From a phage, in sequence record PV730302.1: 64,000 bases of DNA; one strand, written 5' to 3'. The notes under the pieces are model-generated. The model saw only the letters and a list, made by a program, of their open reading frames with translations, did not search any database and was not told the DNA's origin. This document shows positions 46,484-62,838 of the stretch, piece by piece. Position 1 is the stretch's first letter, and each line of letters starts with the position of its first letter. The position numbers and the translations under genes are program-made.

Positions 46484-46767
46484 TATCTCATCTGAAAGCC
46501 GTGTGATTTAACATTACCACCATAGATGTCAGAGGTATTGACTTCACGGGCGACACTTGGGTCGATATTGATATCATGGTTGAGCTTAGTGATTGCTAGG
46601 GTATCACGACCATTAACAGTACGGAATTCTACAGGGCATACAACATCGGCATAAGCCTTAATAGATTCACGAGTAGGTTGTTTGTCGGCAGGAACGTCTT
46701 TACCTGCTTTAGAGAAAACAACTTCACAGAAATTTTTACGAGTATCAAAATAAGTGGTCATAAACAT
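46480..46767 (-). CDS. Hypothetical protein
   Basis: ORF 46480..46800; start at internal ATG (MFMTTYF) preceded by GAGG; hairpin 46783-46798 upstream; C-terminus HGFQMRY. Confidence 0.5.
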   Translation of the reverse strand: MFMTTYFDTRKNFCEVVFSKAGKDVPADKQPTRESIKAYADVVCPVEFRTVNGRDTLAITKLNHDINIDPSVAREVNTSDIYGGNVKSHGFQMRY

Positions 46768-46808
46768 AATATTTTCCTCAAAGGAGGCCGAAGCCTCCAT
46801 TTTTAAGA

Positions 46809-47174
46809 TTAGATATCGAATTCGTTCAGAACTACATCAAAGATTGCTTCCAGGTGTTCAGGTTTAGCTCGGTTGCTCAGGATGTGACGAATCCAAGTTT
46901 TAACCAGAAGCTTACGATTAACACCGTTCCAGCAAGGATGGGTACCTAAATCACGTTGACGGAAATCGTCATCTAAAGCGATTTTAAAAGTAGAACCTTC
47001 CATTGTGATTGAAACCGTAATACCATTTTCAAAGCGCATATAAACGTAGTTAGGAGTCATGCACTGTTCGATTTCGCACACGGTGCCGTTGTTGTGTTTC
47101 CACAGGCAAATAACTTCAGAAGAACCAGCGATACCGTTAGAAACATATTTACGTTCGAAGTTGATGTAGTTCAT
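46809..47174 (-). CDS. Hypothetical early protein
   Basis: 121 aa; GGAG RBS and GTTTAC-N16/17-TATTAT promoter (47212-47244) upstream. Confidence 0.55.
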   Translation of the reverse strand: MNYINFERKYVSNGIAGSSEVICLWKHNNGTVCEIEQCMTPNYVYMRFENGITVSITMEGSTFKIALDDDFRQRDLGTHPCWNGVNRKLLVKTWIRHILSNRAKPEHLEAIFDVVLNEFDI

Positions 47175-47211
47175 TTTATTCTCCAGTTTGTTTTCGTATT
47201 ATTTGGTACAG

Positions 47212-47244
47212 GTCTATAATAACACAACCTGTACCAAAGTAAAC
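47212..47244 (-). promoter_or_regulatory. T4 early-type promoter GTTTAC-N16/17-TATTAT
   Basis: Upstream of gene 46809..47174; part of repeated leader cassette. Confidence 0.5.
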
Positions 47245-47248
47245 TGTT

Positions 47249-47617
47249 TTATGCAACTTTAATCCAATTATCTAAATTTAATTCACCTTTAGCTTTCATT
47301 TTTTCAATCAACTCATCAGCAGTAGTGCGACCATTTTGATACCATGTAACATCTTCAGAATAACCAGTTTCTTCATCTTCATAAGTCTTACAACGAATCT
47401 TACCAAGAATCAAAGTTTTCAGTTCGTAGGTATCACCGGTAAAAAAGTTTGTTACTATAATTTTCCAAGAGAAGTCATCAGAAGGACCTTCCGGAGTCAT
47501 GCAACCTACAAATTCAAATTGTTCTTTGTACAAGTGCCATTGCATTTCTTTGGTTTCGATAGCTTTATAACCGTCGTGGTCTTTACCTTTGATGTATGAG
47601 TTAAGATTGATTTTCAT
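47249..47617 (-). CDS. Hypothetical early protein
   Basis: 122 aa; 5' leader identical to that of the 46809..47174 gene. Confidence 0.55.
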   Translation of the reverse strand: MKINLNSYIKGKDHDGYKAIETKEMQWHLYKEQFEFVGCMTPEGPSDDFSWKIIVTNFFTGDTYELKTLILGKIRCKTYEDEETGYSEDVTWYQNGRTTADELIEKMKAKGELNLDNWIKVA

Positions 47618-47654
47618 TTTATTCTCCAGTTTGTTTTCGTATTATTTGGTACAT

Positions 47655-47690
47655 GTCTATAGTATCATGCCTACCGGAGATGTACACCCT
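47655..47690 (-). promoter_or_regulatory. Early-type promoter variant (TGTACA / TACTAT)
   Basis: Second copy of the leader cassette upstream of gene 47249..47617; -35 diverged. Confidence 0.35.
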
Positions 47691-47704
47691 TTTTTTAAAG
47701 ATTT

Positions 47705-47735
47705 AGAAACAAAAATGGGACTCCGAAGAGTCCCA
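47705..47735 (-). terminator. Rho-independent terminator after small basic ORF
   Basis: GGGACTC-ttcg-GAGTCCC hairpin followed on minus strand by ATTTTTGTTT. Confidence 0.6.
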
Positions 47736-47739
47736 TAAC

Positions 47740-47901
47740 TTATGCCTGAGGCTTACCAAAGCAAGCAGCATCTGCACGCAATACTGCACGAGCACGAGCT
47801 TGAAGCTTATCAACTACCTGATTGATACGCTTGTTGGACGCACGCTTGTAACCAGCGCGTTTAGAGGTACCGTCAACTACTTTAACTTCTTTCTTAGCCA
47901 T
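47740..47901 (-). CDS. Hypothetical small highly basic protein (53 aa)
   Basis: Not in track; MAKKEVKVVDGTSKRAGYKRASNKRINQVVDKLQARARAVLRADAACFGKPQA; followed by terminator hairpin plus T-run. Confidence 0.5.
   Translation of the reverse strand: MAKKEVKVVDGTSKRAGYKRASNKRINQVVDKLQARARAVLRADAACFGKPQA

Positions 47902-51896: not shown

Positions 51897-51897
<1 letters not shown>
51700..51897 (-). CDS. Hypothetical protein
   Basis: ORF 51700..51927 trimmed to internal ATG (MNNIEKIF) abutting the pseT stop. Confidence 0.4.
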
Positions 51898-53098
<1,201 letters not shown>

Positions 53099-53129
53099 AA
53101 TAATTTCCTCAATTTTTATAATCCGTAGG

Positions 53130-53162
53130 AGCATTATACTCTGCTCCCAAGAGTTTGTAAAC
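53130..53162 (-). promoter_or_regulatory. T4 early-type promoter GTTTAC-N18-TATAAT
   Basis: Minus strand consensus-like -35 and perfect TATAAT upstream of the pseT.1-position gene. Confidence 0.5.
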
Positions 53163-62522: not shown

Positions 62523-62762
62523 TCACGCTTTCTTAGCGATTTTCCAGTCAGCTTTAAATTGGTCAACGTCTGAGTGGTGAATCCAGAAACCCGATGAGCT
62601 ACCGTCTTCGTAAAGAGGACAACCATCACACTCATCTTTCCACCCCATTGCACACAAAGCTTGTTCAGCTTTTTCCAGAGCTTCCGGGTTATTACCTTGG
62701 ATTGTGAAGTACCATTTGCCTTTAACTTCAGAATCGTTGATTGATTCACGTTGTAATTTCAT
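62523..62762 (-). CDS. Hypothetical protein
   Basis: 79-aa ORF with Cys cluster (CDGCP). Confidence 0.45.
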   Translation of the reverse strand: MKLQRESINDSEVKGKWYFTIQGNNPEALEKAEQALCAMGWKDECDGCPLYEDGSSSGFWIHHSDVDQFKADWKIAKKA

Positions 62763-62838
62763 TTTATTCTCCGGTGTTTAGTTGTTATCTCAGTATGGGG
62801 CCATTATATCATAGCCCCATTTGGCTGTACACCACTTT

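Follow-up and report, generated by a model that had tools for sequence, protein, structure and literature searches.

We analysed a 64,000-nt stretch of phage DNA (sequence record PV730302.1), hereafter called the window, which comes from a T4-like phage with ABTNLsp5, IME341 and IME08 as its nearest Dhakavirus genomes (97-98%). Our subject is a pair of predicted early-promoter cassettes on the minus strand, which precede the consecutive genes 30.8 and 30.7 and share one leader sequence. Gene 30.7 (46809..47174, minus strand; 121 amino acids (aa)) was assigned by PF06919 (Phage_T4_Gp30_7, E=1.7e-51), by phrog_1582 and by the homologous position in IME08, which is 30.7. Gene 30.8 (47249..47617, minus strand; 122 aa) lies between the two copies of the leader and was assigned by PF06019 (Phage_30_8, E=2e-43) and phrog_1507. 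According to the IME08 annotation, Pfam and PHROG, 30.6 lies on one side of this pair, and 30.9, rIII and gene 31 lie on the other. The upstream neighbour 30.9 (47740..47901, minus strand; 53 aa; phrog_1427 and IME08 annotation) forms the left flank of the variable module described below. In tblastn searches, 30.7 was found in 995 phage records, 708 of them with at least 90% identity. Gene 30.8 was found in 1036 records, of which only 79 reached 90% identity and 639 fell below 60%. Both genes are single-copy in about 1000 genomes each. We found no solved structure or informative fold match that bears on the function of gp30.7 or gp30.8, and a literature search for the two proteins returned nothing relevant.

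The leader repeat and the two promoter cassettes

A first-pass annotation, made from the sequence alone, had reported an identity of about 41 nt in front of the two genes, at 47171-47215 and 47614-47658. The repeat is real, although these bounds are slightly too long and take in one mismatch (G versus T on the plus strand at 47211/47654). The repeat search reported a single direct-repeat family, 47170-47224 versus 47613-47667, in which 52 of 55 nt are identical at a spacing of 443 nt, and the exact run inside it is 41 nt long (47170-47210 = 47613-47653). The 39-mer noted in the first-pass annotation occurs exactly twice in the 64-kb window by pattern search (47172-47210 and 47615-47653), with a chance expectation of 0 in 100 shuffles even when up to 3 mismatches were allowed; in the window the repeat is strictly two-copy. 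Its sequence on the minus (coding) strand is TGTTAT/cTATAGACc/aTGTACCAAATAATACGAAAACAAACTGGAGAATAAAATGAA. Copy 1 (47170..47224, exact core 47170-47210) runs from the -10 box to the ATG of 30.7, and copy 2 (47613..47667, exact core 47613-47653) runs from the -10 box to the ATG of 30.8. Each copy includes the -10 hexamer (TATTAT versus TACTAT), the transcription-start region, the entire 5' leader, the Shine-Dalgarno (SD) sequence GGAG, and the ATG with two more bases, and their 3' end is the ATGAA of the consecutive minus-strand open reading frames (ORFs) 46809-47174 and 47249-47617. The sequence and the ORFs thereby confirm that the repeat covers the start codon, ribosome-binding site and -10 region of both genes. 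The -35 and upstream halves of the two promoters, P30.7 and P30.8, are not alike (58% identity). The same two copies are present in about 45 genome records, all of the Dhakavirus type wherever this was checked (JS98, IME08, Bp7, QL01, MX01, WG01, VR5 and others), which excludes the assembly error that had been named as a possible refutation.

The two cassettes follow a common order. Upstream of 30.7, the 30.8 stop codon is followed by TTTACT, a spacer with a TGn motif, TATTAT and the leader, which ends in GGAGAATAAAATG. The promoter scan predicted P30.7 with the -35 box at 47238-47243, a 16-nt spacer and the -10 box at 47216-47221; the spacer is 16 nt by the convention of the scan and 17 nt if the hexamer is read as GTTTAC. 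Its -35 box begins 4 nt past the 30.8 stop codon TAA, and the promoter is conserved in T4, RB69, VR20 and others. Upstream of 30.8, the order is the 30.9 stop codon, a terminator, an A-tract (47690-47699), TGTACA, a spacer with TGn, TACTAT and the same leader, again ending in GGAGAATAAAATG. We read the predicted P30.8 (47659..47699, minus strand) from the sequence, with the -35 box TGTACA at 47681-47686, a 16-nt spacer, the -10 box TACTAT at 47659-47664, and TTTAAAAAAAGGG upstream of the -35 box. Its elements line up with those of P30.7 at an offset of +443, and also with those of the orthologous Mosigvirus promoter TTTACT...TACTAT. The intrinsic terminator after 30.9 (47705..47736, minus strand) consists of ATGGGACTCTTCGGAGTCCCAT followed by TTTTTGTTTCT and has a UUCG loop of 4 nt, 9 pairs including 5 G-C pairs, and a T-run. 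It is the dominant hairpin in the fold of 47613-47745 and is conserved in relatives. The annotation of phage Lutter independently has a promoter in front of each of the two genes, 30.7 and 30.8, and a terminator behind 30.9.

Folded by itself, the shared leader forms no RNA structure (minimum free energy 0). Its SD region, GGAGAATAAAA, at 47174..47184 for 30.7 and at 47617..47627 for 30.8 (both on the minus strand), matches at 11 of 11 positions the strong RegB/S1 cleavage consensus GG*AGRAYARAA, which requires unstructured RNA (Uzan and Miller 2010, PMC3014915). A pattern search found three such consensus sites in the window against 0.39 expected. From these full matches, both leaders would be predicted targets of RegB cleavage.

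Gene families and recombination at the cassettes

The first-pass annotation had explained the repeat by tandem duplication, with conversion of the 5' region, and had pointed to a CMTP motif in both products. The motif is indeed present in both proteins, at residues 38-41 and 39-42, and BLASTP of 30.7 against 30.8 gave 9 identities over 28 residues around it (E=0.033). However, hhalign with profiles derived from the locus (14 and 12 sequences) found no relationship between the two proteins, and hhalign of family alignments from a large protein database (16 versus 31 sequences) gave a probability of 0.07%. The AlphaFold model of 30.7 has six strands and two helices and is moderately confident (predicted local distance difference test (pLDDT) score of 72), and the model of 30.8 (pLDDT 91) combines long hairpin strands with a single helix. 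Their topologies differ, and Foldseek searches of BFVD returned only its own family for each. In relatives, the position of CMTP is occupied by YMTP, WVSP, YWED or YWTD in 30.7 and by CTTP or ETTE in the 30.8 alleles; CMTP is conserved in neither family. Because the two proteins belong to separate Pfam families, with a 0.07% profile probability, differing predicted folds and an unconserved CMTP, and because both genes are single-copy, tandem duplication of the genes is unsupported, and 30.7 and 30.8 are not duplicates.

Recombination at these cassettes is seen on comparison among relatives. Over the last 55 nt, the within-genome identity of P30.7 and P30.8 is 0.91 in the window versus 0.57 in T4. 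Phages K65_evo2 and Moon have their own, different runs of 28 nt and 22 nt common to their two cassettes, and the two cassettes of Moon are mutual nearest neighbours. At both genes, the central 23 nt of the leader (ACCAAATAATACGAAAACAAACT) vary from genus to genus, and their identity is restricted to Dhakavirus; the SD-to-ATG end alone is conserved almost everywhere. Because the central 23 nt vary between genera, functional constraint does not explain the identity of the Dhakavirus leaders. Judged by these alignments, homogenisation of the cassettes is lineage-specific, and we regard it as concerted evolution. Within Dhakavirus, the exact tract measures 41 nt in the window and 49 nt in a genome resembling IME341. 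Point differences occur in IME08 and LQ5, and in VR5 and PSD9 the SD end of the 30.7 copy is a different one. Homogenisation of the 5' regions by recombination or conversion is supported by such tracts of variable length (41 versus 49 nt). A reciprocal pattern that we had considered as a possible circle junction was rejected, as it corresponds to the longer conversion tract in the IME341-like genome.

Deletion variants, which the first-pass annotation had proposed to look for in related genomes, were found among phages of the Mosigvirus type. At least seven Mosigvirus-type records lack 30.8, and the mapped junctions lie inside the cassette. In AV115 and PTE-Eco05 (Mosigvirus type), the 30.9 terminator is followed by a full P30.8 with its leader and then by 30.7, and the junction falls within the 16-nt sequence GGAGAATAAAATGAAC, which RB69 carries at both genes. 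In JM10, the -35 box and spacer of a Mosigvirus P30.8 are joined to a Dhakavirus-type leader and 30.7 within the -10 box, where TGTGTTA meets TTATAGAC. AV116, AV118, AV109 and AV114 align as single pieces and have the same arrangement without 30.8. The mosaic of JM10 extends past its junction (1956-2243): 30.9 is 100% of the Mosigvirus type, and 30.6 is 92% identical to the window and only 75% identical to RB69.

Where 30.8 is present, it varies between conserved flanks. There are at least three divergent 30.8 alleles, namely the window type of 122 aa, the Mosigvirus type, about 55% identical, and the T4 type of 110 aa, about 38% identical. The flanks are near-identical around alleles that range from 37-98% in identity, and the adjoining 30.7 is nearly invariant. 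For the pairs window and LQ5, T4 and teqdroes, and RB69 and LF82-9, the flanks are about 93-100% identical and the 30.8 ORF is about 30-83% identical per 30-nt bin. The breakpoints of allele exchange are the ATG and the -35 box of P30.7. Even within Dhakavirus, the same repeats are spaced by 443 nt or, with a T4-type allele, by 406 nt. The closest 30.8 proteins (98.4%) include those of the Gaprivervirus-type phages ECML-359 and pEC-M719-6WT.2, which resemble VR20 and RZ. The 30.8 proteins of Dhakavirus genomes that are nearest by their flanks are less close (IME08 95%, ABTNLsp5 97%). This difference suggests recent intergeneric exchange of the 30.8 ORF.

The same junction has also received additional genes. 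K65_evo2 (984-1493), Moon (1021-1509) and Ent31 (935-1456) carry one more ORF, of about 160-180 aa, between 30.8 and the P30.7 cassette. This ORF has no promoter cassette of its own in these phages; the intergenic spacer is short and, in Ent31, includes a small hairpin. In Gravdalen, the corresponding junction upstream of 30.7 holds two extra ORFs (1625-2158 and 2166-2636). The suggestion that the repeat is a possible site for recombination or deletion thus holds, with deletions whose junctions, and allele swaps whose breakpoints, lie in the cassettes.

The hairpin at P30.7 and neighbouring features

P30.7 contains a 12-bp inverted repeat (47202..47238, minus strand) with fully complementary arms, 47227-47238 in the spacer and 47202-47213 in the start region, and with the -10 box in the loop. 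Folded as RNA, this hairpin has -19 kcal/mol (z=-5.08), whereas the fold of the corresponding stretch at P30.8 is not significant (z=-0.57). Repeat copy 2 retains the 3' arm (ACATGTACCAAA) without a matching 5' arm. Because the 5' arm lies upstream of the P30.7 start site, the hairpin is possible only in read-through RNA or in single-stranded DNA. The orthologous P30.7 regions also fold, with z=-5.9 in T4, -5.05 in RB69, -3.0 in Klebsiella phage K65_evo2, -3.6 in Erwinia phage Gravdalen and -6.9 in Moon. Gravdalen has the arms GGTGAGAGTCT/AGACTCTCACC in place of GGTACAGG/CCTGTACC, so that both sides are changed and pairing is kept, and the arms in K65_evo2 are TTGGGTGGT/ACCACCCAA. The stem pairs were listed for each sequence separately, as one-base indels shift Gravdalen and K65_evo2 out of register in the MAFFT alignment. 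The hairpin is kept by covariation, that is by compensatory changes, across genera.

The window has seven TTTACW/TAYWAT promoters, all on the minus strand, and the -10 box lies in a hairpin loop in three of the seven. P30.7 may therefore belong to a recurring class, since these three T4-type early promoters share the design. Similarity of the cassette pair to other sites in the window is limited to the -10 box or the SD sequence and does not exceed 17 nt. A similar cassette at 62758-62831 (minus strand) has TGTACA-17-TATAAT with the -10 box in a 10-bp hairpin, ATGGGGCTAT/ATGGCCCCAT (-20.7 kcal/mol, z about -5.3), whose arms are unlike those of P30.7. It carries the third full RegB-type SD sequence, GGAGAATAAAATGAA, and precedes a 79-aa ORF (62523-62762). 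A further early promoter, at 53133-53161 (minus strand; TTTACA-17-TATAAT), likewise places its -10 box in the loop of a hairpin (GGGAGCAG.../...GCTCC, z about -2.8). This promoter precedes a 111-aa ORF (52799-53134), itself just upstream of a 301-aa ORF (51897-52802), which we take to be a candidate polynucleotide kinase (pseT) from its length and its P-loop start.

In Moonvirus and Karamvirus the P30.7 stem is longer, CTCCGTTGTAT / ATACAACGGAG (about 951-1020 in Moon and about 864-934 in Ent31). In both Moon and Ent31, the 3' arm of this longer stem is the SD sequence of 30.7. By this layout, the SD sequence would be hidden in read-through transcripts and free in those started at P30.7. The repeat search also found 11/12-nt complementarity in the window between 47227-47238, in the 3' untranslated region of 30.8, and 47645-47656, where the predicted 30.8 mRNA has its 5' end; it arises because the 3' hairpin arm is copied into the 30.8 leader. 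One could imagine that the P30.7 hairpin tells the origins of transcripts apart, and that the two ends of the 30.8 mRNA pair or compete, linking the stability or translation of both genes. We consider this idea unlikely. If it were true, read-through RNA from 30.8 would fold the hairpin, and RNA started at P30.7 would keep its leader free.

On the far side of 30.7, another UUCG-loop hairpin, GGAGGCTTCGGCCTCC, lies between 30.7 and 30.6 (46783-46798, minus strand). The longest 30.6 ORF begins at 46800, inside this hairpin. Because the PHROG match begins at residue 12 of that ORF and relatives annotate 95 aa, the true start of 30.6 is probably the ATG at 46767 (MFMTTYF...).

Interpretation and comparison with known systems

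Promoter-early stem-loop (PeSL) cassettes are known regulatory elements of T4-type phages (Arbiol et al. 2010, PMC2839356; Comeau et al. 2014, PMC4122927). We think it likely that two PeSL-like early cassettes drive 30.8 and 30.7, recombine with each other and make 30.8 an exchangeable module, and that the genes themselves are not duplicates. The repeat copies would then be the downstream halves, from the -10 box to the ATG, of two separate sigma-70-type early promoter cassettes. A strong immediate-early promoter would serve each gene separately, translation of both would start from the same unstructured sequence, and the RegB/S1 match of GGAGAATAAAA suggests that both mRNAs would be switched on together and inactivated together. 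The P30.7 hairpin, formed in read-through RNA, may serve as the 3' end or as an insulator of the 30.8 unit. In Dhakavirus, the leader could have been homogenised in two ways, each of which would yield two identical leaders: gene conversion, or a Campbell-type event in which a 30.8 circle re-inserted at a lone JM10-type cassette. The orphan 3' hairpin arm at P30.8 hints at a direction from 30.7 to 30.8. Recombination between cassettes would make 30.8 a 443-bp exchangeable module, which may be lost, swapped or joined by an extra ORF, as in the relatives.

Several observations weigh against this interpretation. The generic scan did not call P30.8, which scored 8/12, under the threshold of 9/12; its -35 box TGTACA is one base off the TTTACW consensus, although the -10 box fits. 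The P30.7 hairpin lacks a U-tract and is not a canonical intrinsic terminator. The exact leader precedes no other gene: blastn-short and pattern searches did not find it elsewhere in the window, and in the IMG/VR scan it was found only as the 30.7/30.8 pair. It is a local pair and not a dispersed mobile element. All of the observed deletions are of the Mosigvirus type and occurred via shorter shared tracts, and among the phage records we found no Dhakavirus without 30.8, every listed record having two copies. Neither IMG/VR nor the metagenome collection contained the junction predicted for a Dhakavirus deletion (a P30.8-type -10 box, the leader and the start of 30.7). A deletion by way of the 41-nt repeat itself is a prediction only. 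The nearest-neighbour identities are too close to decide the direction of conversion, and the data fit conversion and re-insertion alike. Finally, for the window phage, the activity of the promoters, their start sites, cleavage by RegB and the role of the hairpin are all predictions.

Other explanations account for the identical leaders in different ways. A binding site could be responsible, with the leader acting as a cis-regulatory operator for an RNA- or DNA-binding factor of phage or host and selection for the site keeping the copies identical. Both copies are exactly conserved across many Dhakavirus isolates, and the leader occurs at these two genes only, which are adjacent and may act together. 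However, other genera keep both genes with unrelated leaders (identity 0.57 in T4), the leader is unstructured and carries no motif other than the SD/RegB site, VR5 and PSD9 differ in the 3' part of one copy, and IME08 and LQ5 have point differences; we regard an operator as unlikely. Convergence without recombination would require that both leaders were independently selected to one optimum, with a strong -10 box, an unstructured A-rich leader and a RegB-type SD sequence. The 3' end of the repeat, GGAGAATAAAATGAA, is indeed common to 30.7 and 30.8 in almost every genus and appears again at a third gene of the window (62758-62772), so that this end is functionally constrained, and -10 regions of the TAYTATAGAC type are found at other early promoters too. 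Such an optimum does not account for central 23 nt that are identical only within Dhakavirus, for K65_evo2 and Moon sharing different sequences between their own cassettes, or for the partnerless 3' hairpin arm of copy 2, which has no obvious selective reason. Convergence is therefore improbable in our view.

The genes might still be diverged paralogues of a tandem duplication, of which conversion kept only the 5' regions alike. In favour of this possibility, the two ORFs are neighbours in the same orientation and similar in size (121 and 122 aa), their CMTP motifs sit at almost equal positions, BLASTP finds a marginal local match (E=0.033), and both models have a beta-rich N-terminal part followed by a C-terminal helix. 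These likenesses stand against separate Pfam and PHROG families, the hhalign probability of 0.07% with nothing from the local profiles, Foldseek matches within each family only, the unconserved CMTP, and a similarity that ends two bases past the ATG. Common descent of the two genes is very improbable, and as an explanation duplication is already largely refuted; a very remote kinship may be conceivable given the pLDDT of 72 for the 30.7 model. Nothing counted for an assembly or sequencing artefact as the source of a false repeat, and with the same two-copy layout in about 45 independently sequenced records and in IMG/VR contigs its chance is negligible. Of the earlier interpretation as a whole, the site of recombination, conversion and deletion stands and the gene duplication does not.

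Recombination between the two PeSL-like cassettes places the locus within the shuffling of small accessory genes in T4-like phages, where the cassette that expresses a gene would also supply the homology for its deletion, replacement and re-insertion. It is useful in that it offers two independent deletion junctions and swaps of alleles in four genera, and in that the conversion tract is of variable length inside a single genus. The 30.9-30.8-30.7 locus could serve as a natural test bed, both for recombination between short repeats of 16-49 nt and, beyond RB49/phi1, for the PeSL mini-circle model. It also calls for caution in annotation, as identical 5' ends do not make adjacent genes paralogues.

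The elements of the cassettes resemble known systems. T4 early 'uber' promoters combine UP, -35, TGn and -10 elements (Hinton 2010, PMC2988021), and the predicted promoters described here have the same elements and lie on the early-gene strand before small genes of the T4 early region. They differ in the -35 box of P30.8, TGTACA, and the start sites in the window are predicted. Likewise, GGAGAATAAAA fits the consensus of strong RegB/S1 sites as a predicted site in an early-gene SD sequence within unstructured RNA, but this consensus accounts for only the last 11-13 nt of the repeat. Genes are also shuffled at another locus, the internal-protein (IP) locus of T4, where the flanks are conserved (Repoila et al. 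1994, as cited in PMC4122927). As that citation presents it, the IP locus is similar in that unrelated or very divergent small ORFs are exchanged among T-even phages via conserved regulatory flanks, and different in that it is not the 30.9-30.8-30.7 locus.

The closest likeness is to the PeSL cassettes themselves. In the main texts of the two publications, the T-even PeSL consensus is given as TTTACW, about 17 nt, and TAYWAT (PMC4122927), and the layout as a stem-loop that either overlaps the -10 box or immediately precedes the promoter, with the SD sequence and ATG at the 3' end (PMC2839356, PMC4122927). In the excision/insertion topology described there, one phage has an ORF enclosed by a pair of elements where its relative has just one, chimeric element (PMC2839356). 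P30.7 fits the T-even consensus, and P30.8 fits it in the -10 box and is one base off in the -35 box. The P30.7 stem encloses the -10 box; at P30.8 the UUCG terminator lies just upstream, and no significant stem-loop lies within the promoter. As in PeSLs, an AT-rich stretch, a promoter and an SD/start codon stand together beside a variable gene of unknown function, indel and replacement junctions fall inside the element, and extra ORFs are found at the junction in four other genera. In contrast, PeSLs as described in those texts form a dispersed family conserved over about 100 bp, whereas here there is a local pair, alike only in the half from -10 to ATG. The same main texts make no mention of 30.7, 30.8 or this locus and refer to JS98 only for the gene 43 region. 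By its structure and by comparison with its relatives, the locus corresponds to the PeSL mechanism, with promoter, terminator and mini-circle activity as predictions here. The 30.9-30.8-30.7 locus is a further well-documented example of this known mechanism and not a new kind of system.

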